NCBI GenBank assembly: GCA_964499645.1
Contig: CAZCLV010000002.1
Span: forward strand, 1 to 34,633
From: an uncultured Mycoplasma sp.
GTDB lineage: Bacteria > Bacillota_I > Bacilli_A > RF39 > UBA660
Reading direction: 5' to 3'
Length of the DNA stretch: 34,633 nucleotides
In this document: positions 13,813 through 30,229 of the stretch, one piece after another
Position numbering within the stretch: the first letter of the stretch is position 1
Layout: each line of letters begins with the position of its first letter
Made by a program: the position numbers and the translations under genes
The notes under the pieces: model-generated
Told to the model about the DNA's origin: nothing
The model's database searches: none
What the model saw: only the letters and a program-made list of their open reading frames with translations

Positions 13813-14505
13813 ATGCTCAAAAAACTAAAGATTATTTTGGTGTTTATCTCATTGTCAGTAGCTCTTTGTTTGATGAGCAATACTTATTCAAGATATGTCT
13901 CAGATGCAACTGGTAATGTTAACTTATCTTTTGCAAATTGGCAAATTCTCGTAAATAGCAATGATATAACTAGTAATTCATCTACTGAATTAACTTTTAT
14001 TCCAGTAATTGAACAAAATAGTAATGTTAAATCAGGAGTTGTTGCTCCTTCTTCAAAAGGTTATTTTGATATTCAGATTAATCCATCAAATGTTGATGTT
14101 TCATTTACTTACTCAATTACATTGGGTGTTACAAATGAAAATATGCCTGATTTAATGATTACAAAGTATTCAATAGTTCCGGATGGATATATTGAAGGTA
14201 ATGCCTTAGAAGTAATAGAATTACAAGATAATAATATTACTAACACCTTGAATTATAATAAAAATATAAACAACTTTAGATTTAGTCCATTCACTATAAG
14301 AGTTTATTTTGAATGGTATGAAGGAAGCAATGAAACAATGGACGATGCAGCAGATACACTAGTAGGAGAAACCGCTGTAAGTGACAACACTACATTTACT
14401 ATAAATGCAAATATAAGTTTTGAACAGGTTATAACACAATCTCAAGCACAAACACAAAATAATGAAGAAAATCCTGTAGTTGAAGAAGAAGCCCCAAATG
14501 AATAA
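13813..14505 (+). CDS. Secreted TasA/camelysin-class protein with SipW-type signal motif (small class)
   Basis: Signal peptide ending ...LMSNTYSRYVSDATG (compare TasA/camelysin GT(W/Y)A.F.D). Beta-rich body. Penultimate strand FTINANISFEQ is typical of the family's terminal ...a.Q strand. Acidic tail. Confidence 0.6.
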   Translation: MLKKLKIILVFISLSVALCLMSNTYSRYVSDATGNVNLSFANWQILVNSNDITSNSSTELTFIPVIEQNSNVKSGVVAPSSKGYFDIQINPSNVDVSFTYSITLGVTNENMPDLMITKYSIVPDGYIEGNALEVIELQDNNITNTLNYNKNINNFRFSPFTIRVYFEWYEGSNETMDDAADTLVGETAVSDNTTFTINANISFEQVITQSQAQTQNNEENPVVEEEAPNE

Positions 14506-14527
14506 AAAGCCATTATGGCTTTTTTTA
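14504..14527. terminator. Bidirectional rho-independent terminator between convergent fibre-locus genes
   Basis: AAAAAGCCA (14504-14512) / TGGCTTTTT (14516-14524), loop TTA, T-run to 14527. The A-run on the left provides the T-tail for the minus strand. Confidence 0.75.
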
Positions 14528-14597: not shown

Positions 14598-15818
14598 TTA
14601 CTTTATATATTCTATTACTGGAATAACCTTACATAATGAAGTTTTACTATTCCCAAATATTTTAGAATTTACATTGTCAATCTTTTCATATGAAAAGACT
14701 TTTTCATTATTATAACCTGTATTTATCCAATAACATGTATCTGATAATAAATAAGTAAATTTTTCATTAATAAACTTGTAATATCCATTTGAATTAATTG
14801 CTTTAGTAATTTCTGTATTAATTCTATCATTATAATTAAGATTTCCTATAAGTGAATCTGATATATTATCTCTTACTAAAAGTGAATTTGTAATATCTTT
14901 GGAAACTATTTTTAATATATCATTTACTGTTAATGGACGTTTATTTACTTCCCATCCATTTGTTAAGTTTAACATTGTAGAGTTATAATTCTCATAGTTT
15001 GAGGTTAAATAATTAGAAGTTGGATCTGGTAATAAAGTTACTTTTTCATCTTCAAGTTTATTATTTATATCTATAACATAAGTTTTTATGCATGTGTTAC
15101 TTATTTCTTGACATATTTGGTTATTTACAACATCAAATAATATTTCTTCCCCTAAGTTATAATTTGGATCACTGGCAATATCATTTTCAATATATTGTTC
15201 CGCCGTAACACTTATTACTATTTGTAGAGATGATCTAATTTCATAGTTTGAATCTGCAGTTTTTTGTTCATTTTCATGTTTTTTAAAATTATATGCATCA
15301 GAACCCCAAATACTATCACTATTGTTATTGCCTGAATCTAATGGCCATGATATAGATACTTCAAAACTACTTTGATCATTTTTTGCCAAAATATAATTTT
15401 TACTTAAATTCATATTAATATGAAAAGGATAATTGTGTGATAATAGATCTTCAACATATTCAGAAGTAATAGTATTATCATCAATTAAAAAGTTGTTTTC
15501 TTCTTTATCTAAAAGTCTAGCAGATATTATTGAATACTTTAAAGTAGCATCTGAATCTCCTAAGTTCTTAATATTAATTAACTCATGGACTGTTTCCATA
15601 CCTGGATATATATTATCTAATGAAATAACTATATCATTTGATACTTTTTTTCCATTTTTATCTAACTCAATATGCCAAGATTTTACTCCTATTTCAGTAT
15701 TAACATTTGATAATCCTGTATATGCAAACCATGCAAAAGTTACTGATATAAGTGAAACTACTATAAAAATTACAGGCATTATATTAATACGTAAATACTT
15801 TTTATACTTGTTCTTCAT
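14598..15818 (-). CDS. Secreted TasA-class protein (FAWF signal motif) with a C-terminal extension of about 190 aa
   Basis: Signal anchor ...LISVTFAWFAYTG. Core strands VHELINIKNLGDSDATLKY and LQIVISVTAEQ fit the TasA-like sandwich pattern. An extra Cys-containing domain follows. GGTGAT-N4-ATG RBS. Confidence 0.6.
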   Translation of the reverse strand: MKNKYKKYLRINIMPVIFIVVSLISVTFAWFAYTGLSNVNTEIGVKSWHIELDKNGKKVSNDIVISLDNIYPGMETVHELINIKNLGDSDATLKYSIISARLLDKEENNFLIDDNTITSEYVEDLLSHNYPFHINMNLSKNYILAKNDQSSFEVSISWPLDSGNNNSDSIWGSDAYNFKKHENEQKTADSNYEIRSSLQIVISVTAEQYIENDIASDPNYNLGEEILFDVVNNQICQEISNTCIKTYVIDINNKLEDEKVTLLPDPTSNYLTSNYENYNSTMLNLTNGWEVNKRPLTVNDILKIVSKDITNSLLVRDNISDSLIGNLNYNDRINTEITKAINSNGYYKFINEKFTYLLSDTCYWINTGYNNEKVFSYEKIDNVNSKIFGNSKTSLCKVIPVIEYIK

Positions 15819-15849: not shown

Positions 15850-16428
15850 TTATTCTTCTTTTAGTTTATTTCTTCTTTTTTCTTCTCTTTCCAACATAGT
15901 TGAAATAATTTCTGCCCCAATAATTATTACAATTGGAATTACTATAAATAAAAAGAATCCTATTTTTGTACCTACTATTTTATAAACTAATGATAATAAG
16001 AATACTCTATATATTACTTTTCCATATAATTGTTCTTCATATATAGTTGGATCTTCAACTAAATTAGCTAATCCTCTAGCACGAAAAATATATCTACCAT
16101 TTTCATCTTGTTTAATATTTGTAACTTGATGGGTAATAACTTTCCCATTAAAGTCCCCTTGTTCTCCTAAGTAGCTAATTGTATCGCCAACTCTAATTTT
16201 ACTAGCATCAATCTTTTTAGATATTAATACATCCCCTATTGAGTACTTTGGTTCCATTGAACCAGAAACGACTGTAAACATTCTTAAATTAAAGAATGAT
16301 ATTTTATTACCACTAAATCTTTGTAAACATACTGCTAATATAAATACCACCAATAATATAAAGAACAAAGTACTAAATACTTTCTTAATTATACTAAACG
16401 TTTTATGTTCTTTTTTTTCTTTTTCCAT
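15850..16428 (-). CDS. sipW: Signal peptidase I, SipW (archaeal/ER S26B) type
   Basis: N- and C-terminal TM segments. Motifs VVSGSMEPKYSIGDVLI (catalytic Ser), VGDTISY, VITHQV (His). The track's GTG start at 16437 lies inside the AGGTGAT RBS, so ATG 16428 was chosen. Confidence 0.8.
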   Translation of the reverse strand: MEKEKKEHKTFSIIKKVFSTLFFILLVVFILAVCLQRFSGNKISFFNLRMFTVVSGSMEPKYSIGDVLISKKIDASKIRVGDTISYLGEQGDFNGKVITHQVTNIKQDENGRYIFRARGLANLVEDPTIYEEQLYGKVIYRVFLLSLVYKIVGTKIGFFLFIVIPIVIIIGAEIISTMLEREEKRRNKLKEE

Positions 16429-16437
16429 TTTTATCAC

Positions 16438-17571
16438 CTATAAATAATCTTTTGTCCTTTCTAAATAATCATCCATTGCACTTTTAAATTTATTTTTTAC
16501 ATCGTTACTTCCTATCAATGTATTATTCTTTGCTCTTTTTATTTCTGATGTTACCATACTAAGTATTTCTTCTTCTGTTATCTTTATTCCACTATTTAAC
16601 AATAATGAAACTATTTTTTGTAATTGTTGTGTTATCATCATAATTGCATACTTTGACAGTTTTTCTTTCTGCGCTTTTTTGGTAGAGCAAACAGAGTCCA
16701 ATACATAATAGTCCATTAAGAAAGATTGATCTAAAATTTCTTTTAGAGTATCATTTCCTTCTGTTTCTAATCCCTCATTAAAATTATCATTTCCTTTGTT
16801 ATCATATGTTTGTAGGAACGTCCATAATTTCATAGCAACTTGAAAGTTAGGATTTTTTAAAATAACATTAGTTCTTTTTATTGGAGGAGTTACTGGTGCT
16901 ACATGTATTTTATCCAACGCTTTTGCAAGTTCACTTCTTTTCCAACTTGATATATAATCTTTAATTCTTTTAACTCTTTCTTTTAGTGATTCCATCTCAT
17001 TACCAAAATCATCTTTATTACCATCTTTTGGCAACTCACTTGTTCCTATTTTTAATTCTATTGTTACTTTTTCATTATTAGTTACAGTAGAAGACATATA
17101 TTCTAATGATTTGTTGTTCTTTGTCTCAATTGAATCTAGTTGTGCTTCTTTTTGAAATACAAATCTCACTAAATTATTTAATAAAGTATAAAGAAATCTA
17201 TTTTCATAAGTGTTATATGTTTCTTCACTACGTACATCCAATATTTTTGATGGTTGTACTTCTTCTGTAATAGGATCTATTTTTTCTATAAAGTGTGTGT
17301 TTCTAGATAAATTTTTTACACTGGCCACCGTTATTTTTCTGGCTTTTTCTATTTTTACAATGTTCTCTTCACTAATTAATGCCAGTTTAGGTGCTTTAAA
17401 AATGTTATCAAGGTATTGACAGGCATGTTCAATTTCATCTACCCAATCAAGTACCATATTATCACTAGACAGTTCTGATTTATATTGCATTTTAGAATTA
17501 TTTTTTTCCATAAACAAATCACATTTTTGTTTTAATCCTTCATCAACTAATGAATTGATGTTTTTTGCCAT
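16438..17571 (-). CDS. McrC N-terminal-domain-like protein (DUF2357-like), no convincing nuclease motif
   Basis: EETYNTYENRFLYTLLNNLV resembles the E. coli McrC stretch NEDTLANRIIKSTLAILI (recalled). 377 aa, cytoplasmic. Only a weak E-x-K candidate (EKVTIELK), with no matching upstream Asp. Start lies 13 nt after the stop of the McrB-like gene. Confidence 0.45.
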   Translation of the reverse strand: MAKNINSLVDEGLKQKCDLFMEKNNSKMQYKSELSSDNMVLDWVDEIEHACQYLDNIFKAPKLALISEENIVKIEKARKITVASVKNLSRNTHFIEKIDPITEEVQPSKILDVRSEETYNTYENRFLYTLLNNLVRFVFQKEAQLDSIETKNNKSLEYMSSTVTNNEKVTIELKIGTSELPKDGNKDDFGNEMESLKERVKRIKDYISSWKRSELAKALDKIHVAPVTPPIKRTNVILKNPNFQVAMKLWTFLQTYDNKGNDNFNEGLETEGNDTLKEILDQSFLMDYYVLDSVCSTKKAQKEKLSKYAIMMITQQLQKIVSLLLNSGIKITEEEILSMVTSEIKRAKNNTLIGSNDVKNKFKSAMDDYLERTKDYL

Positions 17572-17584
17572 ATATAATCACTTC

Positions 17585-19114
17585 CTATACTGATTTTTTA
17601 ATTCTTTGTAAGTATTCAATACATTCTTTCATAGCGCCTTTTCCAAAATTTGTATCTAAATATGTAATAAATGGATCTATTTCATCACGTATAAATGAAA
17701 TATTTAATTGTTCAAATTTACGGAATATTTTTTTGGCGATAAAGTAATCTATTGCTGCTATTTCATTTCCACCACATGCTACATATACCGGAACAAATGT
17801 CCTCAATTGTTTCATAATACGATTCCCAAATGCTATTCTAAAATGTTTTATAACATAATCATCCATTTCTTTTATTTTATCTAAGTTTGAATCTAAAACA
17901 GGATGTTCTTCAATAGCTGTTTTGAATAATGATTCTAAATAAGTGGAATTAATATCCATTGCTTCTTGTTCTCTACATTTAAATGGATCTATTTTACTAT
18001 TTATATCTATTGGCATTGCACGGTCATATACTTTATCTGTAACCATAAATGTTGAATCATCGTTATTGATTGTACCAATATACCATAAGTTACCTGGTAA
18101 TTTTAATTTTCCACCAATAATTCCTTTGGGATCACTTGCCCAAGAGTTAGTAACAAGTTCGATAATCCATTCATCTCTTGAAGGCATTTCCAGAATTGAT
18201 AGCATTTCTGCAAAGTAATATTCTACACGAGCAATATTCATTTCATCTAGAATTATTGTATGGACATCATCATCGTAATTTGAACGATATAATTCTGCTA
18301 AAACATCTGATTCATTAAACTTTTTAGTAAATTCATTGAAGTATCCTAATAATTCTGTTTTATCTCTCCATGAAGGTTCTACTGATGCTATACATGAGTT
18401 ATTTTTAACAAATTTACCCCAAGCATATGCTAGTGAAGTTTTCCCAGTTCCAGATATACCTTGTAAGATAATTAACTTACCACAAGCAAGAGCCGCAATA
18501 AATGGTCTTAATAATTCAGGATCATAATATAAATGTAATTGCCCTGCTGAATAGCATCTAAAATTATCCATCAATTCTTCTAAAGAGAAGTTATTACCAT
18601 AATTTTTAACTTTATATTCTTCATAATCTTTATCAATCTTTGTAAGTTTAGAAAATCTAATATTTGGATCTTCTTTTGTAGCATCTTCTGGTTTTTCTTC
18701 TGTTGCTTCATCTTGTTCTTCTTCATCAGGTTTTAATCCTAAATGAGATACTTTCATTGCCATAATCTCATTTTTTTCTTTTAGTAACTTTTTTACTTGT
18801 CCATTTAATCCAGCTATTTCATCTAATAGTTCTTCTTGATTTAATTTACCTTTTCTTGATCTTAGGATTCTTTTAATTCCAAAAATTATTAGTAGAATAA
18901 TTAATCCTACAATAATTACTAGTGTTAAAACTGATAATCCAACAAATAACCATTCTGGTCCATTAAAGCTACCTTTATAATTATTAATTATTGATAAATA
19001 GTCATTATAATTAACCATTTGAGTTATTCCTACTCCTATTCCTTTGAAGATTACCATTACTCCATCAAAGAATATAGAAATAAATTCATAAAAAAATCTT
19101 AAAAATGTATTCAT
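17585..19114 (-). CDS. Membrane-anchored McrB-family AAA+ NTPase (GTPase-type)
   Basis: Two N-terminal TM segments, then a coiled coil and acidic linker, then the AAA+ core. Core motifs: Walker A LILQGISGTGKTSLA; HTIILDEMNIARVEYYFAEMLSILE (compare McrB IIDEINRANLSKVFGEVMMLME); NLWYIGTINNDDS..VTDKVYDRA (compare NVYIIGLMNTADRSLAVVDYALRRRF). McrB sequence recalled from memory. Confidence 0.7.
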   Translation of the reverse strand: MNTFLRFFYEFISIFFDGVMVIFKGIGVGITQMVNYNDYLSIINNYKGSFNGPEWLFVGLSVLTLVIIVGLIILLIIFGIKRILRSRKGKLNQEELLDEIAGLNGQVKKLLKEKNEIMAMKVSHLGLKPDEEEQDEATEEKPEDATKEDPNIRFSKLTKIDKDYEEYKVKNYGNNFSLEELMDNFRCYSAGQLHLYYDPELLRPFIAALACGKLIILQGISGTGKTSLAYAWGKFVKNNSCIASVEPSWRDKTELLGYFNEFTKKFNESDVLAELYRSNYDDDVHTIILDEMNIARVEYYFAEMLSILEMPSRDEWIIELVTNSWASDPKGIIGGKLKLPGNLWYIGTINNDDSTFMVTDKVYDRAMPIDINSKIDPFKCREQEAMDINSTYLESLFKTAIEEHPVLDSNLDKIKEMDDYVIKHFRIAFGNRIMKQLRTFVPVYVACGGNEIAAIDYFIAKKIFRKFEQLNISFIRDEIDPFITYLDTNFGKGAMKECIEYLQRIKKSV

Positions 19115-19117
19115 ATA

Positions 19118-21250
19118 CTACTCTCCTCCAAAATCCCTAATTTTATCTGTAATATTTTCACAAATAACTTTATCATATAGTTCTTTTGGTATTTGTGAAA
19201 GGTCATTTTCTTTATTAGTACTATCAACAAATATATAATCTGTTATATATAAATCTTTACGATATTCTTTTGGTACTTCAATATTTGTATTTAATACTAA
19301 TGCAAATTTATATCCAACTTTTTTATATTTTTTTATATTTTGTAAATTTTTTAATAAGTCTTTTAATGTAATTAATATAATAACATTATTTTTTGCATAA
19401 ATATTTTCTATAGTTTTTAATAAACTTTCTAATTTCTTTGTTTTTGTATATATACTTGTTGGAATATATACAAAATATTTTCTATCAAAGTTAGATAAGT
19501 TCATATCATTTATTAATTGAATAGATAATAATGTAGTTAATACTGTCATCTTATCTTCTGCTACTATTCCTTCATTATAGGTTTTATCAATAATGTAATC
19601 ACTGTAGACTTTGCTAAATGAAAGGTTATGTTCTAAATCTACTGCAAACATATCTTTTTTTGGTAACTCAATTAGATTTAAATTAAACATATTTGTTTCT
19701 AATTTTTTTAATAAATAATCTGTCACTTCAAAATAGTGCTTTTGTATTTTCATTATTTCATCAACAATATAATTAACTTTTTCTTTATCCCAATCCAGTT
19801 CTTTTGAATATTTTATTAATTCTTTTTTATAAAATTCAAATTTTGCTTTGGCATCAGTAATTGAGCTGTTTCCTTGTTCAATATTTGCAATTAAAATAAA
19901 TATTTTAGCAAACTTTTCAACTTTATCTTTATACTTTTTATCAGATTCTTTATAATTTTTTACTAATTCATCACTTATTTTTTTAATTATTTTTTCAATT
20001 TTTAAAAATAGTTTTTTTACTACAAATTCATTATTCTTATCATAATAAGTATTATAGTATTTAACACTAATATAAGTATTTTTAAATGTGTCTTTTATTG
20101 AAGATTCATTAACCAATAGCTTTTTATTTTCCATTATAGTATTTATTAGTTCTTCTAACTCATCTTCTTTTATTTGAATTACTTTATCAATAATATTTTT
20201 GCTTTTTTTATTTGATTTGCTATTTTTTAGCATTTCTAAATTAATAGTAGATTCTGCTTCAGTAGAAGTTTCTTCTTGTTCTTCTAATATTTCTACTTCT
20301 TCTATATCTTCTTTATCAACTTTTTTAGGACTTTTAATTTCATTTTTTGCTATTTCAAGAAATGTATCATCTATTTCAGATAAATCAACTGGAATAACTC
20401 TATACATAGATGTTTTTTCTAATTCATCCTCAGTAAGTTCTACTTCATTTTCTTCTATTGAATCTACTGATTTGTTTTCATTATTTAAATTATCAATTAA
20501 TTCATCTTTGGCTTTTTTAATAAATTCATTATCCATATCAACTGGAATTGTCCTATAAATAGCAGTTTTTTCTAGTTCTTCATTTTCTTCTTTAACTGGT
20601 GTTTCTATTTTAACTGCAATAACTTCCTCTTTTTTTTGTTCTTCATCATCAAAGAAGTAATTCTTTTTTTGTTTTTTATTTTTAGTTTTATTTTTTGGAA
20701 ATAATTTATCTACATATTTGTTTATTGATAAAAAATAATTTTTTTGATCTTGCTTTTTTCTAAATAATAAATTAAATATAAATAATGTAACAATAAGTGC
20801 TACTAAAACGCTTGGATTAAATAATGTTCTTCGGAATATGCCAAAGTTATGTAGAACTTTTACAACTTTTCCTATAATTTGGTCTTCTGTTATAGGGGCA
20901 TCTTTTGCATTATTAGCATCACCACGTGTTACATATTTCCCTTTATATACTTCTATAATTCTATGTGTTATATAATCTCCATTTAGTTTATAAGTAACAA
21001 CATCATTTAGTTTAGGGTTTGATGTTGATTTTACTATTATCCAATCACCAGCATTTATGGCATCTGCCATACTACCAGTTTGAACTTCAAATATTGAATA
21101 TCCAAAGAAATCAGCATAATCATTATGAAAAATTCTTATTTGAATACTTGTATATATTGAGATTAATAAAATAATACTAAATATAAATATTAATATATTT
21201 AATAAAAAGTTAATAATTTTTTCTATAATATTCTTTTTATTTGACTTCAT
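19118..21250 (-). CDS. SipW-type signal peptidase fused to a cytoplasmic extension of about 545 aa
   Basis: TM1, then the full S26B set VQTGSMADAINAGDWIIV, VVTY, YITHRI, TRGDANNAKD, then TM2 (LVALIVTLFIFNLLF). After TM2 comes a long K/E-rich region and an alpha/beta C-terminal domain. The track start at 21265 is TTG with no RBS. ATG 21250 has GGAAGGG upstream. Confidence 0.8.
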   Translation of the reverse strand: MKSNKKNIIEKIINFLLNILIFIFSIILLISIYTSIQIRIFHNDYADFFGYSIFEVQTGSMADAINAGDWIIVKSTSNPKLNDVVTYKLNGDYITHRIIEVYKGKYVTRGDANNAKDAPITEDQIIGKVVKVLHNFGIFRRTLFNPSVLVALIVTLFIFNLLFRKKQDQKNYFLSINKYVDKLFPKNKTKNKKQKKNYFFDDEEQKKEEVIAVKIETPVKEENEELEKTAIYRTIPVDMDNEFIKKAKDELIDNLNNENKSVDSIEENEVELTEDELEKTSMYRVIPVDLSEIDDTFLEIAKNEIKSPKKVDKEDIEEVEILEEQEETSTEAESTINLEMLKNSKSNKKSKNIIDKVIQIKEDELEELINTIMENKKLLVNESSIKDTFKNTYISVKYYNTYYDKNNEFVVKKLFLKIEKIIKKISDELVKNYKESDKKYKDKVEKFAKIFILIANIEQGNSSITDAKAKFEFYKKELIKYSKELDWDKEKVNYIVDEIMKIQKHYFEVTDYLLKKLETNMFNLNLIELPKKDMFAVDLEHNLSFSKVYSDYIIDKTYNEGIVAEDKMTVLTTLLSIQLINDMNLSNFDRKYFVYIPTSIYTKTKKLESLLKTIENIYAKNNVIILITLKDLLKNLQNIKKYKKVGYKFALVLNTNIEVPKEYRKDLYITDYIFVDSTNKENDLSQIPKELYDKVICENITDKIRDFGGE

Positions 21251-21287
21251 ATTTACCCTTCCCAATCATATCTTTATTCTATTATTA

Positions 21288-21316
21288 ATTTTATCATAAT
21301 AAACGACTATTTACAA
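21288..21316 (-). promoter_or_regulatory. Possible internal sigma-A promoter ahead of the SipW-fusion gene
   Basis: Minus strand: TTGTAA (21316-21311), 17-bp spacer, TGA-TAAAAT (extended -10, hexamer 21293-21288). Confidence 0.35.
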
Positions 21317-21332
21317 CATTATAAAATTTTTT

Positions 21333-21369
21333 TAACAAAAAAAATTAACCCAATTTTTGGATTAATTTT
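21333..21369 (-). terminator. Rho-independent terminator after the inactive SipW-like gene
   Basis: Minus strand AAAATTAATCC / GGGTTAATTTT (one G-U pair), 7-nt loop, followed by TTTTGTT. Lies 12 nt beyond the stop at 21381. Confidence 0.55.
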
Positions 21370-21380
21370 ATTAATTATTT

Positions 21381-21992
21381 CTATTTTAGAAAGTCTTTTT
21401 CGTCTTCTTTTATATTATCTTTTGGTTGATCATTTGAGTCTGCTTTTTGTTTTTTTTCAAATTCTTCTTCATCTTTACTATATTTTATTTCAACTATTAA
21501 CGAATATATTTCATAAATAAAAATCATAAAGCTTGGTACAAGGATCATAAATAAAAAGCCCCATTGTGATTCTACTATTCCTAAATAAGTTCCTATTTTT
21601 TCATATACTTTTGTGGCACTACCTATAATAAATTCTGCATCATAGAATGAACCATTTTCATATGAAAAAGCATTGTCATCAGGAAAAACTTTTCCAACAG
21701 TTCCAAAATCTACTGTTACCTTGCTCTTACTATCTACTTTATAAGCAAACAATTCATCACCAGGATTAATTTCACTTAATTCTTTACTTTTTACTAAAAT
21801 AAGATCTCCTTTTTTATACTTATCAGATGAAACTTCATGTTTTAATATTATTAATGAAGTATCATTTATTTGTGTAACTCCATACTTATTAAAATTCCAT
21901 AGCAATATTGTCATTCCTATTGCAAATGAAAAGAATGCTACTGCTAAAATTCCTATAATAATTTTTTTTATTGCCTTACCTATTTTTTTCAT
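21381..21992 (-). CDS. SipW-like pseudo-peptidase (same topology, catalytic Ser/His motifs absent)
   Basis: N- and C-terminal TM segments. Scaffold motifs KKGDLILVKS and PGDELFAY are retained. The position of SGSM reads HEVSSDKY, and there is no THR(I/V) or GD.N..D motif. Confidence 0.5.
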   Translation of the reverse strand: MKKIGKAIKKIIIGILAVAFFSFAIGMTILLWNFNKYGVTQINDTSLIILKHEVSSDKYKKGDLILVKSKELSEINPGDELFAYKVDSKSKVTVDFGTVGKVFPDDNAFSYENGSFYDAEFIIGSATKVYEKIGTYLGIVESQWGFLFMILVPSFMIFIYEIYSLIVEIKYSKDEEEFEKKQKADSNDQPKDNIKEDEKDFLK

Positions 21993-22061: not shown

Positions 22062-22967
22062 TTAACACCCTGTTGTGTCTGAATATGTAAACTCTGTTAC
22101 ATCATAAACTTCTTCAAAGTTTATTTTATAGAACATGTAACTAATACTTTTTTTAGGATTAATACTTAATGTTATTTCTTTTATATATCCATCTTCATCT
22201 TCTATATATGAATTAAATTGATTACTTTTTGTGTCAATTTTGAATTTACTTGAATCCCAAGCTATTTTTATACATTTTGCAGTTTTATAGGAATTTGATA
22301 TTACTAATTCTCCATATTCTGAATTATCTTTATAGAATAAATTAACTTTTTCTTCTTTTGAATTAATTTTATGAAGCAAAAAGTTTCCACTTAGTGTTTT
22401 ATGATATGGTGCTGTAGTATTTACTTCAATATTTATGGTTAAATCCTTTATTTCATAGTTTTCATCAGTCAAAACAATATCAAAATGTAAATCATTTACT
22501 GATACCTGACTTATATAATCATATTGATTTGTCTCACATTCGTTTTTATCCATTTTAGATGTATCCACACCATCATTAGTATTATTAATACATATTTTTT
22601 TACTTAATAGCACTCCTTCATATTGATTTGTTCCTGTATCAAATAAATTACATGTCGTATGATTTGCAGCTTCTCCATTTATTGTACAAGTAACATTATA
22701 ATTAATATCATAATCACTTATTACAGTAGGATTTAAGCTATTATTTATGCTAAAATTAACACTACCACCATTCCATAAGTTATTAACATTTTTGGTAGTA
22801 CCTATGTTTAACTGTTCACTTGAAAAATAAAAACCTTGAGACTTTAAATAGTAATTCCAAATTGAATTAGATACATATTTTGCATAAGTTATTCCATATC
22901 CTATTACTAGTGCAATAGCAATAACTAATCCTGCTAAAAGTATATATCTTTTAGTCCTTTTTCTCAT
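22062..22967 (-). CDS. Secreted TasA/camelysin-class protein (small-class signal motif), Cys-containing
   Basis: MRKRTKRYILLAGLVIAIALVIGYGITYAKYVSNS is a basic N-region, H-region and SipW-type motif. Start moved from 22997 to ATG 22967, which has a GGTGAT-N3 RBS that overlaps the TAG stop of the upstream gene. Confidence 0.6.
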   Translation of the reverse strand: MRKRTKRYILLAGLVIAIALVIGYGITYAKYVSNSIWNYYLKSQGFYFSSEQLNIGTTKNVNNLWNGGSVNFSINNSLNPTVISDYDINYNVTCTINGEAANHTTCNLFDTGTNQYEGVLLSKKICINNTNDGVDTSKMDKNECETNQYDYISQVSVNDLHFDIVLTDENYEIKDLTINIEVNTTAPYHKTLSGNFLLHKINSKEEKVNLFYKDNSEYGELVISNSYKTAKCIKIAWDSSKFKIDTKSNQFNSYIEDEDGYIKEITLSINPKKSISYMFYKINFEEVYDVTEFTYSDTTGC

Positions 22968-22975
22968 AAAATCAC

Positions 22976-23521
22976 CTATTTTCCTATATTTTGCCAACTC
23001 TTTATTTCTATATTAATGTAATCTACTAAATTAGAATATAAATCACTTGAATATTCACTATCAAATTCAACTTTTAGTTTATAATTATCAAGTTCTTGAT
23101 CAGAGTATCCCATTTCTAAAATTGGAGAATTGCACACTAATTCATTTTCAGAATTGCGTGTATATGTTTCATCACAAGTCATAATTAAATCTTCCTCGTT
23201 TCCATCTATATAATATAGTCTAATTATTAAGGGTACAAAATGATATGTTTTAATCGTCATTTGATATTTTACTGAAACATTACTTACGGTACCAGAAATA
23301 TTATTACTTACAGAAAATGGGTATTCTTTTTGTACCCCTGGCGTTAAATCTACCAACGAGAAATGAAGTTGATCTAACTTCTTTGCATCAAATATGAATT
23401 TGGCAATATTTTGATTTGCAGACATATTGCTAGAACTTGTAAAAAGGGAATATGTTATTCCAAAACCAAATATTAAAAATACTAATACTATTAAAATAAT
23501 TAAAATTTTTTGTTTTTTCAT
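22976..23521 (-). CDS. Secreted TasA/camelysin-class protein (small class, 181 aa)
   Basis: Signal ...FGFGITYSLFTSSS. Strands EYPFSVSNNISGTVSNVSVKYQ and the terminal YINIEIKSWQ fit the TasA-like pattern. RBS GGGAGGA. Confidence 0.6.
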   Translation of the reverse strand: MKKQKILIILIVLVFLIFGFGITYSLFTSSSNMSANQNIAKFIFDAKKLDQLHFSLVDLTPGVQKEYPFSVSNNISGTVSNVSVKYQMTIKTYHFVPLIIRLYYIDGNEEDLIMTCDETYTRNSENELVCNSPILEMGYSDQELDNYKLKVEFDSEYSSDLYSNLVDYINIEIKSWQNIGK

Positions 23522-23535
23522 ATTATCCTCCCTTT

Positions 23536-26500
23536 TTATTTTACAATAAATAATTTTTCTAATGTTCCTACTTTTTTTGTATCATTATATAATTCAAAGA
23601 CAAATTTATAACCATTGTTCTCAAAATTTTGCGGTATAAGATTTAAACTAAATGTATTTTCACTTCCATCAAAATTAAGATTTGAAATATAATATAAATT
23701 TGTTGAAGATGCTTCTAAATCATCAGAAATATAATTTTTTAAATCTTCTACTGAATAATTTTGATTAAAAGCAGTTAATTGATCTTTTTTATATAAAGAA
23801 ACTCTCAAACTTGGATTTGTAAAATTGCCATCTGCTACTACTTTAAATTGAATATTTTGTTGTTCAGAACTCTTATCTATTATTCTATTTGTATCATCCA
23901 TGCTTATATTAAAACTATGTTCTGTAGTTAAGTATGTGCTTACTATATTAATTGGAATACTTACTTCTACGTCACTTAAATTATCATAATATATACCATC
24001 ATTTGAAACATAGCTTGATATTTTTAAATAGTATAACCCTTCTTTCAAATTTGCATTGTTCTCTTTCGTAATTATTGTAATTGTTTTAGTAGTATCTTCT
24101 ATTCCATTATTTAAATCTATATGAACTTTATTATCATTTTCTGGATAATATTCATTTGTTCCCACTTTTACAATAATATTTTTTAAATAGTCATCATTTA
24201 CTGTTAAACCATGATTATCTACAATTTTTAATACTATTCCAACTTCTTTATTTTCATAAGTTGTATCATTTATTTTTGAATCATTTAAATATTTGTAATT
24301 TATACTACTTGTTATATTTACATTTGTTGTTGAATTACTATTAAATTGAATATTACCACCTACATAATCAGTAGTAATATTTAAAGAAGCCGATGAACTA
24401 TTACCATTAACGGTAGAGTAAATATTAAATGGTTTTATTGTATTATATAATGTTGGTCTTATATTTATATTATTTGAATTATGTAATTCTAAATACATTA
24501 AAACATTTTCATAATTTTTTGTAATATTTGTATTTGATAAATCTACAACAATAGTAAAACTTTCTATAATTGTTCCATTATCATAATAATTGCTTTCTGT
24601 ATAATTTTTTTTTGTTGATCCTGTACCTTTTTCATTAAATAAAGTAAATGGATAAGTTGCTTTTTTTATACAATTTGTATCTTCAATAGAACAACTATTA
24701 TTAAAATTAAATTCATCATTTTCTGTTATTACTTCATATTCATATACTTTTGAGGTAATTTTATCTATTAATGTTAATTTTGTTCCTAATGGCAATAATA
24801 TATTTGAAACAAAATTATGGGTGTTTCCATTAATTTCATCAGAATTTTTTGAATAACTTACATTTAATGTAATAGTGGATTTATTTGTAATATTATTATT
24901 GGCATTCAAATAATTGTTTTCATTTCTACCTATTGTTAGTTTAGTCTCTGTATATCCATCATAAATAATATAATTAGTATTTACAAATGTAACATAATCA
25001 CTATTATCAATTACTTTTGCATAAATTATATATTTTTGATATTGATTTATAACAAATGGGTCAACATAATCTATCCAATTATTATCTGAAAGTTGATTTA
25101 ATGCATTATTACTTAATACTTCAGTAGTAATATAATATCCCACACTCTTTATTCCTGATAAATTATCTTCCGCTTCAATTGTTATTGTTTGAGTTCTATC
25201 TATGTAAGTATAACCCGGTGTTAAACTTAATGTTTGGTATTCCTTATCATTAACTTTTATTGCTATAGAGGCACCTGTTAAGTCTAAAACTAATATATCA
25301 GTATTTAATATTTTTGCTTCATCATTTATATCATTGGTAGCTTTAACTTTTACATAAATAATATAGGACCCTTCATCTGTTATTTGAACTATATCACTAT
25401 ATGGCTCCCAACTAGTTATTCCTTCAATTTCTAAATTTGTTAGTTTTCTATCACTGATATAATACTCTTTTTCTATTAATGGATTTAATGCATCCATTTC
25501 TTCTATACTAAAAGTAATATTATTTTTAAGTTTAACTGTTTTTAGTTCATCACTTAAATTATTCCATGAATATGTTCCTACATGAATACTAGCAATAGGA
25601 TCATTACTATCATCTATAAATAATATTGGTAATGAATTTTCGTCATAAACCCAAACATTATTTTCATTTATTAATAGATCATTAAAACTAACAAATTCAC
25701 TATATAATAAATTACTAGTTACGTAATTTTTTGTTTTTAAATTATTTATTGTAGTAATATTAAATGATTCATTATAAGTTTCATCATCTATTGGATTTAA
25801 GCTTGTTGAATATGTATTGGTAAATGTCACCGCAGTATTTGCTATTACTCCTATAGCGGTGCTATTATTTATATCAAAAACATTATTTATTGAAATAGAG
25901 CCGGTATTATCATTAATTATTCCAATAAAACCGCCAATATAAGAACTATTTATTGTCCCTGTATTATAGCATTTTGATATTAATATATCATCTTCACTTT
26001 TTTCTATTGTTCCTACCAATCCACCACTTGTATGAGAGCTATTTATATTTCCTGTGTTATAACTTTGGTTTATACTTAATAAGTTAGTTGTTGTTCCTAC
26101 TAAACCTCCGCTTATTTTTTGTCCATATATATTAGCTTTATTTATCACATTTTCTAAAAGCGTATTATTGCTTTTTCCTATTATTCCACCTGTAACAGAA
26201 TAATTATATGAAATGTGATATTTTACATTAGTAAAAGTTACTGATGCATTTTCTGATGTTGAAGATGCTAGAATATCAATATCATCAGCAATAGTAGTTC
26301 CTAAATCAATATCAAAACTACCATTTGTAACTACTACTCCATTTATTTCTATTAAAGTGTTTTCATCGGTAGCATTATTTAAAGTATAAGTTCCTGTTAA
26401 TGAAGTGCTTAAAATCTCACTTCCAATAAATGGAATATTATTAGTTAAATTAACATTGCTTGTAGAACTAATTTCATTTAATTCAATTGGTAAAATATTA

Positions 26501-27228
26501 GCAGTTAATTCAATATTTTTTGTGATATTTGTTTTCCCAATTACATATCCCTTAAATAAAGTATTTTTAATATTAGCATTTGTAGTACTTGATGCAATAC
26601 CTCCAGTAATAATTCCACCATTAATAACTGAATTTTCAACATATAAGTCTGTAATTTCACCTTGTAAAGAAGTGAATAAACCTAGTTCTTCTTTTTCCTC
26701 ATCTGTAATATATAATCCAAGTATTCTATATGATCTTCCATCAAATTTTCCTTTAAATCCATTTAAAGTTTGAAATAAGTTTATTGATCCAACTTCTGGT
26801 TCTGTTTTTAAACTATCTGCATAGTATTTTCCAGTATAATCATCAACAAAATATGTTGTGTCATTTAATAAATAAGTTACTTTATCTGTTGCATCATAAG
26901 AGAATACACCATTATTAATGATGATATCATTTCCTAAAACAAAATAATTGTTTTCATAATTATTTTCTTGGAGTTGTTCAGCAAAATATGCAAGTTCTGC
27001 TCCATTTGATATTACATATGGATTATTACTTGCTCCAGTTCCTCTTTTATAGCCAGTAGCAATACTTCCATCCCAAGGTAAAACTGTATCTAATACATTT
27101 CTGTTTTTATATCTTGATAAAGTCGGTATAGCAATTGGCAAAGCACATAATAAAAACAAAGCTATTATTGAATAAGCTATCTTTTGAAATCTTGATAAAT
27201 TGTTAATAAATTTTCTCATTCTTATCAT
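23536..27228 (-). CDS. Giant (1230 aa) surface protein with GLUG-motif repeats and multiple beta-rich domains
   Basis: N-terminal anchor/signal ...ALPIAIPTLSRYKNRN (small-class motif). NPYVISNGAELAYFAEQ precedes repeated G-G-(L/I)-(V/I)-G motifs (TGGIASS, TGGIIGKS, SGGLVGTT, SGGLVGTI, IGGFIGII). About 800 aa of N/T/S-rich beta sequence follow. No C-terminal LPXTG. Confidence 0.7.
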   Translation of the reverse strand: MIRMRKFINNLSRFQKIAYSIIALFLLCALPIAIPTLSRYKNRNVLDTVLPWDGSIATGYKRGTGASNNPYVISNGAELAYFAEQLQENNYENNYFVLGNDIIINNGVFSYDATDKVTYLLNDTTYFVDDYTGKYYADSLKTEPEVGSINLFQTLNGFKGKFDGRSYRILGLYITDEEKEELGLFTSLQGEITDLYVENSVINGGIITGGIASSTTNANIKNTLFKGYVIGKTNITKNIELTANILPIELNEISSTSNVNLTNNIPFIGSEILSTSLTGTYTLNNATDENTLIEINGVVVTNGSFDIDLGTTIADDIDILASSTSENASVTFTNVKYHISYNYSVTGGIIGKSNNTLLENVINKANIYGQKISGGLVGTTTNLLSINQSYNTGNINSSHTSGGLVGTIEKSEDDILISKCYNTGTINSSYIGGFIGIINDNTGSISINNVFDINNSTAIGVIANTAVTFTNTYSTSLNPIDDETYNESFNITTINNLKTKNYVTSNLLYSEFVSFNDLLINENNVWVYDENSLPILFIDDSNDPIASIHVGTYSWNNLSDELKTVKLKNNITFSIEEMDALNPLIEKEYYISDRKLTNLEIEGITSWEPYSDIVQITDEGSYIIYVKVKATNDINDEAKILNTDILVLDLTGASIAIKVNDKEYQTLSLTPGYTYIDRTQTITIEAEDNLSGIKSVGYYITTEVLSNNALNQLSDNNWIDYVDPFVINQYQKYIIYAKVIDNSDYVTFVNTNYIIYDGYTETKLTIGRNENNYLNANNNITNKSTITLNVSYSKNSDEINGNTHNFVSNILLPLGTKLTLIDKITSKVYEYEVITENDEFNFNNSCSIEDTNCIKKATYPFTLFNEKGTGSTKKNYTESNYYDNGTIIESFTIVVDLSNTNITKNYENVLMYLELHNSNNINIRPTLYNTIKPFNIYSTVNGNSSSASLNITTDYVGGNIQFNSNSTTNVNITSSINYKYLNDSKINDTTYENKEVGIVLKIVDNHGLTVNDDYLKNIIVKVGTNEYYPENDNKVHIDLNNGIEDTTKTITIITKENNANLKEGLYYLKISSYVSNDGIYYDNLSDVEVSIPINIVSTYLTTEHSFNISMDDTNRIIDKSSEQQNIQFKVVADGNFTNPSLRVSLYKKDQLTAFNQNYSVEDLKNYISDDLEASSTNLYYISNLNFDGSENTFSLNLIPQNFENNGYKFVFELYNDTKKVGTLEKLFIVK

Positions 27229-27323: not shown

Positions 27324-27352
27324 CAAGAAAAAACCTCCTTTTTTGGAAGTTA
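27324..27352 (-). terminator. Terminator/attenuator hairpin overlapping the stop of the 542-aa gene
   Basis: Minus strand AACTTCC / GGAGGTT (one G-U pair), loop AAAAAA, followed by TTTTTCTT. Confidence 0.5.
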
Positions 27353-28978
27353 TTCTTTTTTATTTTCTGCTTTATCAATTTTTTCAACTTGACTCATAAA
27401 CCATATTTTTTCAACAGTTGTTGGGCTATCTTCTATTTCTTTAATTCTTAATAATAATTGAATTTTACTTATTAATTCATTTAAATTTTCAGCACTTAAT
27501 GATTCTTCTGTTAAATTAATATTATCTAATCTATATTTATTCATTATAATTCTTGCTAAATTTGAATCTTCAAATATAGCTATTCCATTTAATATTATAT
27601 TAGTAGGATTCATTGCAAATAAATCAAAATTATCACTATACTTAATTAATTCATCATATTTTGTTATTTCAAATACTCTTTTTAATCCTAATTTTTTATA
27701 GTAATCAAAGCTATAATATAAATGTAATACTTCTGACATTGTTAAAGAAGCACTTAATATTGGAGAAATCTTATTTTTTATATATTCTTCATCAAAAGCC
27801 TTATATAGTTCATATATTTCGTTTGCTAAACGTACAGAATCAATTTTTGCTTGTCTTAAATCAGTAGAATTTTTTATTCCAAATAATCCTAGTTTGCCAG
27901 TAAATATTCTTTTATTTAGCTTTTCTAATTTTGCTTCTTTATCTTCAATTTTTTTCTCAACATTGGATAATTCTTTATTTGTTTCTTTTGTATTTCCTGT
28001 TGGAATTAGCTTTTCATATTTTGATTTAAAGTCATTAATTAATGGTAAAAATTCTAAGTAATTACTGTATTCTTCTACATTTGTTTTTAATTTAGCTAAA
28101 CTTTCATAAAATTTATCCATTTGAATTTTATCATCTAAGTCAATATTTTCAATCATAAGACTATTATAAGTTGAAGTTCTTACCTTGCTATCTTGAAAGT
28201 AATTTGTAATATCTATTTCACCTCGTTTAGCAAAATCAATAATATCACAAATATTTTCCTTATCTGCTAAGTTAAGTTTTTTATATACCTCGGCTAATTT
28301 TCTTAAGCAGTCATCATAATTAGATATATTATTTTTAAACATTTCTTCATTTTTTAGTTTTAAAATATAATTATTAAATCTATTTTTATATTTATTAATT
28401 AACTTCCTAAAGTTTAATTCAATATGCCTAATTATTTCAGGATTAACCCAATATATTTTTTCAAACACTTTTGATACATTATCATAATTTTTATTTTTAC
28501 TATTTCTTGCTGCCAAAAATGAAGTCATATATTCATTAACATAACAGGTATAATCAAAATCTGACTCAACAAGGTTTATTCCTGCTGATTCAAATTTGTT
28601 TAAAAATTCATTTATTATGTCATTTAAAGAATTAAAATTAAAATCATAATAATGAAGAATTTGATATATTAAAGTATCAAATCCCATCTTTTCAATATAA
28701 ATATTTGATGGGTTCAATATAAATTTAATATGTTCTAATGCATTAAGTTCTTCATTTAATTTAGCTACATCTTTTTGAGAATTTTTTATATTAAAAGATT
28801 TACTTTTTGTATCTATATATTTTTTTACACTTTTTTGATATTCACTATATTTTCCAATTATTGTATCTATTTTTTCATTATATTTCTTTATATTTGATTT
28901 AGTATTAGTTGGTAAAACTGAAATTAGTGTTTTCTTTGCTTCAATATCCTCATTGATAAAGTCTGAAAAATTAGTCAT
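27350..28978 (-). CDS. Hypothetical cytoplasmic, predominantly helical/coiled-coil protein (542 aa)
   Basis: No TM segment, signal peptide or P-loop. K/E/N-rich heptad-like stretches. ATG lies 1 nt after the stop of the 47-aa ORF, whose last codons supply AAGGAGGAAAA as the RBS. Confidence 0.7.
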   Translation of the reverse strand: MTNFSDFINEDIEAKKTLISVLPTNTKSNIKKYNEKIDTIIGKYSEYQKSVKKYIDTKSKSFNIKNSQKDVAKLNEELNALEHIKFILNPSNIYIEKMGFDTLIYQILHYYDFNFNSLNDIINEFLNKFESAGINLVESDFDYTCYVNEYMTSFLAARNSKNKNYDNVSKVFEKIYWVNPEIIRHIELNFRKLINKYKNRFNNYILKLKNEEMFKNNISNYDDCLRKLAEVYKKLNLADKENICDIIDFAKRGEIDITNYFQDSKVRTSTYNSLMIENIDLDDKIQMDKFYESLAKLKTNVEEYSNYLEFLPLINDFKSKYEKLIPTGNTKETNKELSNVEKKIEDKEAKLEKLNKRIFTGKLGLFGIKNSTDLRQAKIDSVRLANEIYELYKAFDEEYIKNKISPILSASLTMSEVLHLYYSFDYYKKLGLKRVFEITKYDELIKYSDNFDLFAMNPTNIILNGIAIFEDSNLARIIMNKYRLDNINLTEESLSAENLNELISKIQLLLRIKEIEDSPTTVEKIWFMSQVEKIDKAENKKE

Positions 28979-29143: not shown

Positions 29144-30229
29144 TTATTCATAACCCGCTAAATCTTTAAAGAACTGAATTGAAATATCAATAACAGCACC
29201 CTTTGAGTTAGTTACTAAGCTATCCATATCTTGTCCTTCTATCCAAACATAAACCCTTACTTTTGTTATACCATTTGGTATTTGAAATAGTGGTTTATCA
29301 AAATCTGTAATATTTTCTTGCATTTTAAAGTGTTCTAAGTCTGTTGGAACCCCACTACCAGCATGACCATTTGCAATTTCCAAAAATTCTCCTTCTTTTA
29401 TAACTGCAAATGTCGGAGTATAGATTCCATCTATCAGCTTTACTCCATATTTTAGAGCTCTTTCTATTGATGATTGAGAATGATTTCTACTATTAGGTTC
29501 ATAAATAATCATTTCACAATTATTATTGCATTTAATATTTTGAATCATACTTAAATCTGATTTAATAGGAACACTTCCTATCTTTACAAATCCAAGTCTT
29601 ATTGAATTTATTGATCCATCTGCATCATCAAATATTTCTTTATCAAATGTAATTGCAGTTTCTTTTGTTAAATATAAATTATCACTATATGGTGAACCAC
29701 TTGCATTTTTTAAGAAAATATCAAATGCAATAAATGAATTTCCATCACTTGCTTTATCTTCATCTAACAATTTAGTTGAAAGAAGTTTTCTTCTTGTAGT
29801 CTTACTAGCATTAACCTCAATATTAGAAGCAGCAAATACATCAAATTTATAATTATCTTTTGATGATATTCCATTTGTAGAAACGGTATATAATCCTCTT
29901 GAAGCCCATTGATTTGTATGATTTGGATAAGTATTATTTAAGTTATATATTAAATTGTCTCTCGAAATTTCAACTTTACTTCCAAAACCTTTTCCATCAA
30001 ATGATATATATAAACCACTTTCATTAGATACTATCATGTTGAAGAAGTTTACTTTTACATTTAAAGAAGCATAAAACCATGCATATGTTGCTGAAATTAA
30101 CAAAACTCCTACTAAGAAAGTAAATATTAAATTACGATTAAAATTATTTTTTTCTTTATATTTATAATTTACAAAATAATTTTTTAATTGTACTAACTTA
30201 GATTTGACCTTATTAATATCTTTTTTCAC
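29144..30229 (-). CDS. TasA-class fibre subunit paralogue 3 (YAWF class, 361 aa, no Cys-loop tail)
   Basis: ...LLISATYAWFYASLNVKVNFFNM, FIAFDIFLKNASGSPY, IKCNNNCEMIIYEPN and ITKVRVYVWIEGQDMD align with the two larger paralogues. GTG start with AGGTG 8 nt upstream and no in-frame ATG nearby. Confidence 0.65.
   Translation of the reverse strand: MKKDINKVKSKLVQLKNYFVNYKYKEKNNFNRNLIFTFLVGVLLISATYAWFYASLNVKVNFFNMIVSNESGLYISFDGKGFGSKVEISRDNLIYNLNNTYPNHTNQWASRGLYTVSTNGISSKDNYKFDVFAASNIEVNASKTTRRKLLSTKLLDEDKASDGNSFIAFDIFLKNASGSPYSDNLYLTKETAITFDKEIFDDADGSINSIRLGFVKIGSVPIKSDLSMIQNIKCNNNCEMIIYEPNSRNHSQSSIERALKYGVKLIDGIYTPTFAVIKEGEFLEIANGHAGSGVPTDLEHFKMQENITDFDKPLFQIPNGITKVRVYVWIEGQDMDSLVTNSKGAVIDISIQFFKDLAGYE

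Follow-up and report, generated by a model that had tools for sequence, protein, structure and literature searches.

A trio of SipW-type paralogues, one apparently without catalysis, in a conserved gene cluster of uncultured Bacilli

The window analysed here is the whole 34,633-nucleotide stretch of contig CAZCLV010000002.1 from an uncultured Mycoplasma sp. (G+C content about 24%). Between positions 15850 and 21992 its minus strand encodes three paralogues of the SipW/SEC11-type (S26B) signal peptidases, and a scan of all open reading frames (ORFs) in the window with three family profiles recovered only these three SipW-like genes. We are highly confident that all three are true S26B paralogues and that the third, a protein of 203 amino acids (aa), is without the catalytic set. 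The overall explanation that we favour, with moderate confidence, is that two active peptidases, a dead helper and eight substrates are encoded together in one cluster. The trio is laid out as follows.

21381..21992, minus strand: dead SipW-like protein, 203 aa; N-terminal transmembrane (TM) segment, beta-rich ecto-domain, C-terminal TM segment, acidic/basic tail
20741..21265, minus strand: giant SipW, peptidase module (aa 1 to about 175); TM1, TGSMAD/ITHRI/GDANNAKD, TM2
20276..20740, minus strand: giant SipW, low-complexity cytoplasmic linker; two KTxx[YF]Rx[IV]x[VI]D copies
19118..20275, minus strand: giant SipW, C-terminal cytoplasmic module (aa 331-715); helical bundle, then a putative degenerate EAL-like alpha/beta domain
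15850..16437, minus strand: small SipW-type signal peptidase, 192/195 aa; SGSMEP, ITHQV, GLANLVED

Two copies with a Ser-His-Asp set and one without

An initial annotation of this DNA had described an ORF of 192 aa with SGSMEP, THQV and a C-terminal TM segment, and another of about 710 aa with TGSMAD, THRI and GDANNAKD between two TM segments; both are present on the minus strand as claimed. The small copy is 195 aa long from a GTG start, or 192 aa from the ATG at 16428, and hydropathy places its TM segments at about 13-44 and 145-184. The giant copy (19118-21265) comprises 715 aa from a TTG start, or 710 aa from the ATG at 21250, and its QTGSMAD, ITHRI and GDANNAKD motifs are flanked by TM segments at about 12-46 and 146-171. 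The two copies exceed the curated cut-off (51.85 bits) of TIGR02228, the archaeal-type signal peptidase I model, the small copy with 81.5 bits and the giant with 65.0. The 190-bit cut-off of NF046067, the Bacillus SipW equivalog, was missed by all three copies (70.9, 49.4 and 20.6 bits); judged by sequence, none of the trio qualifies under NCBI's definition as a B. subtilis SipW orthologue.

When a profile of the small type plus three giant N-termini (A3) was compared with the PDB, it matched human SEC11C (E = 2e-10) and SEC11A (E = 5.8e-10) with the SGSM box, the His box and the distal Asp aligned, and the profile of the giant type (A4) matched SEC11A (E = 4.5e-4) and SEC11C (E = 5.7e-4). The Ser of SGSMEP in the small copy and of TGSMAD in the giant aligns with SGSM of SEC11C, and the distal Asp of GLANLVED and GDANNAKD aligns to the second Asp of the SEC11C VDD stretch. 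S57, H100 and D126 are among the invariant residues of A3, and in the aligned giant orthologues of A4 the conservation of Ser, His and the two Asp is 90% or higher. Over 108 residues the two types share 31% identity. The small copy reads GLANLVED instead of GDxNxxxD, so that the distal Asp is kept and the proximal one lost, a detail that had previously been missed. Because the Ser-His-Asp set is retained, we regard both the small copy and the giant's N-terminal module as putative active peptidases.

The relationship of the 203-aa copy to these two proteins is more distant. It carries HEVSSDKYKKGDLILVK and PGDELFAY, has TM segments at about 4-34 and 142-169, and shows a hydropathy profile that resembles both active copies. 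It gave no TIGR02228 match and no Pfam or NCBIfam S26 match except over the C-terminal TM segment, and pairwise BLASTP against the active copies returned just a 24-aa stretch (E = 0.016). This match being too weak, profiles were compared instead. With hhalign, an alignment of 56 diverse relatives of the 203-aa copy (A2) matched A3 over its full length with a probability of 98.8% (E = 7e-17, 161 columns). Trimmed of both TM helices, the ecto-domain alone still scored E = 3.6e-9 with the small type and 1.5e-7 with the giant type, versus 0.06 and 0.47, respectively, for reversed-sequence controls. Within the window, hidden Markov model matches between dead and active copies were reciprocal (4e-14 and 3e-6), and phmmer with the small SipW of the window matched many distant dead-family members from end to end, with E-values as low as 5e-12. 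Searched against PDB sequences, the 203-aa family profile gave no meaningful match; a urease subunit ranked highest, at E = 0.034.

An AlphaFold model of the 203-aa copy (33 orthologues) reached a predicted local distance difference test score (pLDDT) of 78.8. Its best PDB match in Foldseek was human SEC11A (7p2p_A, E = 1.5e-3, probability 1.00), and Streptococcus pyogenes SipA, a protein discussed below, came at rank 5 (4n31_A, probability 0.90, E = 0.17). With moderate confidence, the model suggests that the 203-aa copy keeps the bitopic topology and the signal peptidase (SPase) beta-fold. The earlier claim that this protein retains the topology and the GDLILVK and PGDELFAY scaffold is thus borne out by the two TM segments, the profile homology and the SEC11A-like model, and with SEC11A as the top match the model speaks for an S26 fold rather than against one.

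The catalytic residues are a different matter. The 203-aa copy has no SxSM box and no THR box. In every alignment of its family the catalytic Ser aligns to V52, a V/I/L column; the His position aligns to G97 or T98, and the position of the triad Asp to G114, inside an NG that is invariant in close orthologues. These residues agree with the initial annotation, which had found no Ser, His or Asp motif. H51, the lone His of the window protein, lies at a non-conserved position, and across the 56 diverse family members only N35 and G134 are invariant and no alternative nucleophile or base is conserved. A shifted Ser/His pair was rejected, as the alignments contain no such pair. With V52, G97/T98 and G114 at the catalytic positions, we therefore regard the 203-aa protein as a homologue of the family and not as one of its peptidases.

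A search of 1.84 billion cluster representatives (50% identity) with the 203-aa family profile returned 939 at E <= 1e-3, of which 356 were at E <= 1e-10. A genuine SGSM box was found in none of the best 150 of the 939; the lone match to an SGSM regular expression among these 150 (P0247) sits after a GD-type strand, off the Ser-box position. We conclude that the dead copy is under selection and not decaying, given the number of clusters that fit its profile and the lack of a genuine SGSM box in the best 150. A decaying pseudogene was accordingly rejected, in view of the 939 matching clusters and of the conserved synteny described below. NCBI and JGI label the dead-family members as hypothetical proteins, and neither Pfam nor NCBIfam holds a model for them. 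One protein (P0265, 147 aa) has a dead-family-like start followed by an active-type segment, TYKSKDGATITHKIV, and is either a recombinant or a misassembly.

Two readings of the 203-aa protein other than that of a non-catalytic S26B paralogue can be weighed directly on these data. That it is a protease using other residues is highly improbable: S46, K61 and D63 are at least 90% conserved in close orthologues, as such a reading would expect, but they are not kept in the wider family, and none of them aligns with a catalytic position. That its likeness to SipW arises by chance, or from two TM helices combined with a biased composition, draws on the weak BLASTP result and the missing Pfam and NCBIfam matches to the catalytic part. 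Against this stand the ecto-domain scores, which are far from those of their reversed controls, and the independent fold match to SEC11A, and we consider a chance likeness extremely improbable.

The cluster and its predicted substrates

Scanning species-representative genomes with A1 identified 115 species-level genomes that encode a relative of the dead copy, and gene order was judged on 80 loci that were fetched from them. A cluster of roughly 14 genes was found in the same order in nearly every locus with enough flank: p523/p529, p361, a 47-aa ORF, p542, p1230, p181, p311, the dead copy, the giant copy, an AAA+ GTPase, a DUF2357 protein, the small SipW, p406 and, on the opposite strand, p230 (names give the length in aa in the window). 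In four loci (L025, L038, L071 and L072) nothing was recognised downstream of the dead copy, with up to 10 kb of flank asked for. In addition to the trio, the window holds the following cluster genes.

17585..19114, minus strand: membrane-anchored McrB-like AAA+ GTPase, 509 aa; McrB profile match, two N-terminal hydrophobic segments
16438..17571, minus strand: DUF2357 protein, 377 aa, without TM segment; presumed McrC-like partner of the GTPase, from Pfam
14598..15818, minus strand: p406, predicted substrate of class 1, VTFA↓WF; by motif, directly after the small SipW gene
13813..14505, plus strand: p230, predicted substrate of class 2, NTYS↓RY; by motif, convergent with the operon
22062..22997, minus strand: p311, predicted substrate of class 2, ITYA↓KY; by motif and synteny
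22976..23521, minus strand: p181, predicted substrate of class 2, ITYS↓LF; by motif
23536..27228, minus strand: p1230, predicted substrate of class 2, PTLS↓RY; by motif and synteny
27350..28978, minus strand: p542, conserved cluster protein without TM segment or signal peptide; by synteny in most loci
29144..30229, minus strand: p361, predicted substrate of class 1, ATYA↓WF; by motif
30345..31916, minus strand: p523, predicted substrate of class 1, ATYA↓WF; by motif and synteny, paralogue of the 529-aa protein
32159..33748, minus strand: p529, predicted substrate of class 1, ATYA↓WF; by motif and synteny

The run of minus-strand genes spans 33748 down to 14598 of the window. From 21992 to 14598 the intergenic gaps are 115, 3, 13, 0 and 31 nt, and the sole gene-flanking site returned by a terminator scan lies at 14504-14524, past the last gene. 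The same scan returned a weak hairpin at 20829-20846, within the giant coding sequence, and three terminator-like sites overall versus 1.5 expected by chance; a promoter scan was uninformative at 24% G+C (72 sites found versus 88 expected). Because of the close gene spacing and the absence of terminators flanking the genes, it is plausible that the genes from 21992 down to 14598 form one transcription unit. The site at 14504-14524 is a perfect 9-bp hairpin, AAAAAGCCAT-TAT-GGCTTTTT, with T runs on both strands; lying between the convergent genes of p230 and p406, it is probably a bidirectional terminator that closes the cluster.

A distant subgroup of the dead family led to loci of a sister lineage in metagenomes (L084-L163), in which the cluster is arranged differently. 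The dead copy is followed by a p230-like gene, a standalone giant-type peptidase (about 168 aa), a p181-like gene and a p311-like gene, and then by a standalone tail protein (about 330 aa), the GTPase, the DUF2357 protein, the small SipW and a p406-like gene. By profile scores, the peptidase-like genes of the sister lineage fall in the same three orthologous groups. Because the same trio is present there although the giant is split, the trio is older than the fusion, and the giant fusion is specific to the lineage of the window. Several sister loci also contain an adjacent pair of SipW-like genes, one active and one dead (L094, 7554-8679; L107, 7791-8931; L134, 7888-8989). With this extra pair, one member having Ser and His boxes and the other lacking them, a cluster holds up to five family members.

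The eight predicted substrates were recognised by a shared motif. Among the 33 ORFs that are 100 aa or longer, eight show the pattern T-[YFWL]-[AS]-x-[FYW] directly after an N-terminal hydrophobic stretch; every one of the eight is a cluster gene, and the motif is found again in orthologues of these proteins. The predicted cleavage consensus is T-(Y/F/L)-(A/S)↓x-(F/Y), the arrow marking the cleaved bond, and P2 is aromatic except for a Leu in one of the eight. The alignment of the 181-aa protein (A8) retains GxTYS in its consensus. TasA is cut by SipW at TWA↓AF, and aromatic residues at P2 and P2' hinder LepB-type enzymes (PMC10269814). From these sequence features we infer that the active copies remove the signal peptides of the eight cluster proteins.

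Homology between the substrates and TasA found no support. The 406-, 230-, 311- and 181-aa proteins had no NCBIfam match at E <= 0.1, the substrate profiles A8 and A9 matched nothing in the PDB, and comparison of A8 with NCBIfam yielded just trace matches to TapA (E = 0.05) in 2 of 23 members. As no profile matched TasA, camelysin, TapA or a solved structure in the PDB, the claim that the substrates are TasA homologues was dropped.

The substrates fall in two motif classes. Class 1, TYA↓WF, comprises p529, p523, p361 and p406; class 2, TY(A/S)↓(K/R/L)(Y/F), comprises p181, p311, p230 and p1230. The small SipW gene always adjoins a class 1 gene, its adjacency to p406 being conserved in both lineages, and in the sister lineage the giant-type peptidase is placed among class 2 genes. 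The position and strand of p230 are kept in most loci that reach that far. Two motif classes, and a gene neighbourhood that pairs the small peptidase with class 1 and the giant type with class 2, make a division of labour between the two likely. The proposal in the initial annotation that two active peptidases divide the labour thus gains some support, with each class adjoining one active type; we still infer the division rather than observe it. In two sister loci (L099, 16829-18067; L100, 16971-18314) the small SipW and a p406-like substrate form a single ORF of 412 or 447 aa, which is either a real fusion or the product of a lost stop codon or an assembly error.

Between p361 and p542 lies a 47-aa ORF without a TM segment, MKKEENKVNFDMSLLSLKELIKVYEDIVGFLEFLEEKKISQEEKEEN (28980-29123, minus strand), the sequence and position of which are kept in L001 (2856-3002) and L002 (3639-3779). 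No Pfam match and no hydrophobic segment were found in p542.

The GTPase/DUF2357 pair and the tail of the giant copy

Of all cluster genes, that of the GTPase is conserved best, with a mean column identity of 75% and E about 1e-245 in the sister lineage, and the DUF2357 gene directly follows it in loci that are long enough. Since conservation within the cluster is highest at this pair, we read it as a component of the system. Its conservation, the EAL-like tail of the giant and the lineage-specific fusion had all gone unnoticed in the initial annotation. A profile search (A5) with the 509-aa protein matched the McrB AAA+ domain in the PDB (E = 7.8e-6) over residues 195-402, about 210 residues; the Walker A sequence GISGTGKTS and ILDEMN (the DEMN box) are invariant in its family. 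It also matches the PADLOC candidate defence model PDC-M26A (E = 6e-37) and has hydrophobic segments at 10-30 and 50-86. The 377-aa protein has a partial Pfam DUF2357 match (2.3e-11, residues 53-155), a domain that, following established family annotation, we take to be McrC-associated. Single-sequence PDB searches found nothing for the GTPase and one insignificant match (E = 0.66) for the DUF2357 protein, which had no significant PADLOC or PDB match with single sequence or profile and no detected nuclease domain. On sequence grounds the 509-aa protein is a member of the McrB-type AAA+ group, and the pair does not look like a McrBC restriction system, since hydrophobic segments replace the DNA-binding domain and the partner has no nuclease match. 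The pair is apparently an unusual, non-restriction use of the McrBC module.

The cytoplasmic part of the giant begins with a linker in which KTxx[YF]Rx[IV]x[VI]D occurs at aa 233-243 and 284-294 (20537-20569 and 20384-20416, minus strand). Of 74 giant orthologues, 46 carry one to three copies and the other cluster proteins carry none; the sequence may be a docking motif. Residues 331-715 of the giant have counterparts in 183 proteins and, in this lineage, are nearly always joined to the peptidase module. This tail gave no Pfam match even at E = 10, and hence none to PF00563. Its AlphaFold model (pLDDT 81.8, predicted template modelling score 0.81) consists of a helical bundle followed by an alpha/beta domain, and EAL domains were the best Foldseek matches, led by 6hq7_B (E = 5e-3) and followed by 8arv, 5m1t and FimX (4fou). 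The model therefore suggests that the tail carries a degenerate EAL-like domain, a likeness at the level of the fold only.

The most conserved stretch of the tail, HNxxFSKVYSDYIIDKTYxEGIxAEDK (giant aa 546-572; 19550-19630, minus strand), could be a loop that binds a ligand or partner. It largely overlaps a region of the model with pLDDT below 50 (fragment residues 220-238). In four further proteins of 616-741 aa (P0153, P0154, P0194 and P0203) a dead SipW-like N-terminus is fused to the giant's tail (E = 1e-14 to 1e-23); a metagenome scan with P0154 found no relative.

Mechanism, alternatives and related systems

The mechanism that we propose runs as follows. The small and giant peptidases would cut signal peptides at T-aromatic-A/S↓x-aromatic sites, the small enzyme handling the TYA↓WF class and the giant type the TY(A/S)↓(K/R/L)(Y/F) class. 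The dead copy would bind an uncleaved, membrane-tethered precursor, or an active peptidase, without cleaving, and would thereby keep subunits at the membrane so that their assembly is ordered or their release timed. In the lineage of the window the fusion probably tethers one peptidase to the cytoplasmic GTPase/DUF2357 module, which, speculatively, controls or powers the process; this tie is the least supported element of the scheme. The proposed role of the dead copy is drawn from two precedents. S. pyogenes SipA combines an SPase fold and a peptide-binding cleft with the loss of Ser and Lys, and pili cannot polymerise without it (PMC4049620); it is also a precedent for the suggestion in the initial annotation that the pseudo-enzyme may serve as a chaperone or docking platform. 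In the Clostridium perfringens BsaA model a signal peptide tethers the subunit until it is docked, whereupon SipW cuts (PMC11580942). By this analogy, we give a non-catalytic helper role for the dead copy about an even chance.

Several points weigh against the explanation. The structural match of the 203-aa copy to SEC11A has a marginal E-value (1.5e-3) and low template modelling (TM) scores (0.35/0.45), and the model itself is of moderate quality. The low scores are due in part to the two TM helices, and at these values the fold evidence is supportive and not decisive by itself. For the tail of the giant, Foldseek probabilities of 0.99-1.00 against EAL domains come with TM-scores of just 0.25-0.39, and the canonical EAL motifs (EAL, N, ExxE, DDFG, K) are not recognisable by eye. 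The small copy is without the proximal Asp of GDxN, so that its activity is assumed rather than certain. The operon is read from gene spacing and the absence of terminators, the label 'TasA-like' for the substrates comes from the cleavage motif alone, and for the dead copy a connection with signal peptides or with one of the peptidases is drawn by analogy.

Three other accounts bear on the dead copy or its neighbours. It could be a negative regulator or decoy that competes for the signal-anchor, delays cleavage and so keeps proteins tethered to the membrane. The retained fold and topology, the lost catalysis and the strict co-conservation with the peptidases fit a decoy equally well, and the BsaA model (PMC11580942) shows that the timing of SipW cleavage matters. 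Nothing separates a decoy from a helper, but the SipA precedent is required for assembly and is not inhibitory, and we consider the decoy unlikely. Alternatively, the dead copy could be a structural membrane subunit of a GTPase/DUF2357/EAL-like machine, with the SPase fold as a mere scaffold. In other lineages the dead module is indeed fused to the giant's cytoplasmic domain, in the four proteins listed above, and ESKWGFLF at the start of TM2, outside the groove of the ecto-domain, is strongly conserved. The ecto-domain is conserved too, however (NKYGVT, KKGDL, GDE-F-Y, ENG), and the dead gene of the sister lineage sits among substrate genes and not beside the GTPase, which makes a pure scaffold distinctly unlikely. 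The third account, in which the GTPase/DUF2357 pair is a McrBC-like defence island inserted between sipW genes and the operon is a mosaic, would explain the matches to McrB and to the PADLOC candidate defence model and the McrC association of DUF2357. It is very unlikely, since the pair occupies the same position in the sufficiently long loci of both lineages and no other part of the cluster is as well conserved. In the GTPase, moreover, a membrane anchor stands where McrB has its DNA-binding domain, and no nuclease was detected in the partner.

A more far-reaching version of the favoured explanation, with two active peptidases and a dead helper, is possible but doubtful. The cluster would encode an undescribed envelope machine in which the GTPase, the DUF2357 protein and the EAL-like module are physically coupled to the peptidases, through the gene fusion in the lineage of the window, and gate either the cleavage and release of the eight surface proteins or the order of their assembly, with active/dead heterodimers as its membrane core. 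The recurrence of active/dead pairs makes such a heterodimer attractive.

Known loci offer partial parallels. The dedicated SipW-type peptidases known so far are encoded by single genes, with one or two matrix proteins as their clients. Like B. subtilis SipW/TapA/TasA, C. perfringens sipW-bsaABC and Bacillus cereus sipW-tasA-calY, the present cluster encodes an S26B peptidase with N- and C-terminal TM anchors beside its predicted substrates, which show the T-aromatic-A↓x-aromatic pattern of TasA (TWA↓AF; PMC10269814). Unlike those loci, it has three paralogues instead of one, with one of them dead, as well as eight predicted substrates and an added GTPase, DUF2357 protein and EAL-like module.

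SipA (LepA), from the FCT pilus islands of S. pyogenes, is likewise an SPase-fold protein without catalytic residues and is encoded among surface-fibre genes. It belongs, however, to the P-type S26A (Ser-Lys) peptidases and serves sortase-assembled pili, whereas the 203-aa copy is S26B (Ser-His-Asp) in origin and has an extra C-terminal TM segment. No cluster protein matched a sortase in Pfam or NCBIfam, and no LPXTG protein was noticed among them. Because the closest relatives in sequence and fold are S26B and a sortase context is absent, we regard the 203-aa copy as an analogue of SipA and not as a member of its family. The dead copy would then be the S26B counterpart of SipA, which suggests that on at least two independent occasions the SPase fold was put to use as a non-catalytic assembly factor.

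The eukaryotic signal peptidase complex also combines a SEC11-type catalytic subunit with a membrane-anchored non-catalytic partner, and SEC11A and SEC11C are the best matches in sequence and fold. The candidate partner here differs in being a dead SEC11-type paralogue; to our knowledge, the accessory subunits of the eukaryotic complex are not SEC11 paralogues. As in McrBC, a McrB-type AAA+ domain is paired with a DUF2357 protein, but the DNA-binding domain gives way to a membrane anchor and a nuclease was not detected. Degenerate EAL receptors such as FimX and LapD are the parallel for the giant's tail, which resembles EAL domains in fold and is without recognisable EAL catalytic motifs. Among the domains that it resembles is the non-catalytic EAL domain of FimX, which regulates pilus biogenesis.

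The literature that we searched contains no account of a dead paralogue of the SipW type or of the present cluster, and nothing in the excerpted text of PMC11580942 ties McrB to SipW. The pseudo signal peptidase is a kind already known from SipA; its S26B origin and the overall design of the cluster may be new. The SipW family has expanded within one cluster, and one branch has turned into a conserved pseudo-enzyme. A signal peptidase that is fused to a cytoplasmic EAL-like domain and encoded beside a McrB-type GTPase of the membrane is a hint that signal-peptide cleavage may be controlled from the cytoplasm, for which we know of no described precedent. Widespread in uncultured, low-G+C Bacilli of gut and rumen, the cluster probably makes a major surface structure of these bacteria. 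As the remaining cluster proteins are mostly without Pfam families, the peptidase trio is the only handle on that structure.

The 80 loci come from uncultured metagenome-assembled genomes labelled Bacilli, Mollicutes, Tenericutes or Bacillota, mostly from gut or rumen, together with some evidently mislabelled bins. Several, among them L004, L009, L023, L026, L057 and L062, are titled Muribaculaceae, Actinomycetes, Ignavibacteriales or Clostridium; these odd labels are probably errors of binning or labelling in the public records. Two minus-strand ORFs that flank the region in the window, at 9754-10668 (304 aa) and 33762-34463 (233 aa), had no Pfam match at E <= 0.01. The neighbours of the cluster here are housekeeping genes (SMC, FtsW, deformylase, ComEC and ComEA), and the flanks vary between genomes.

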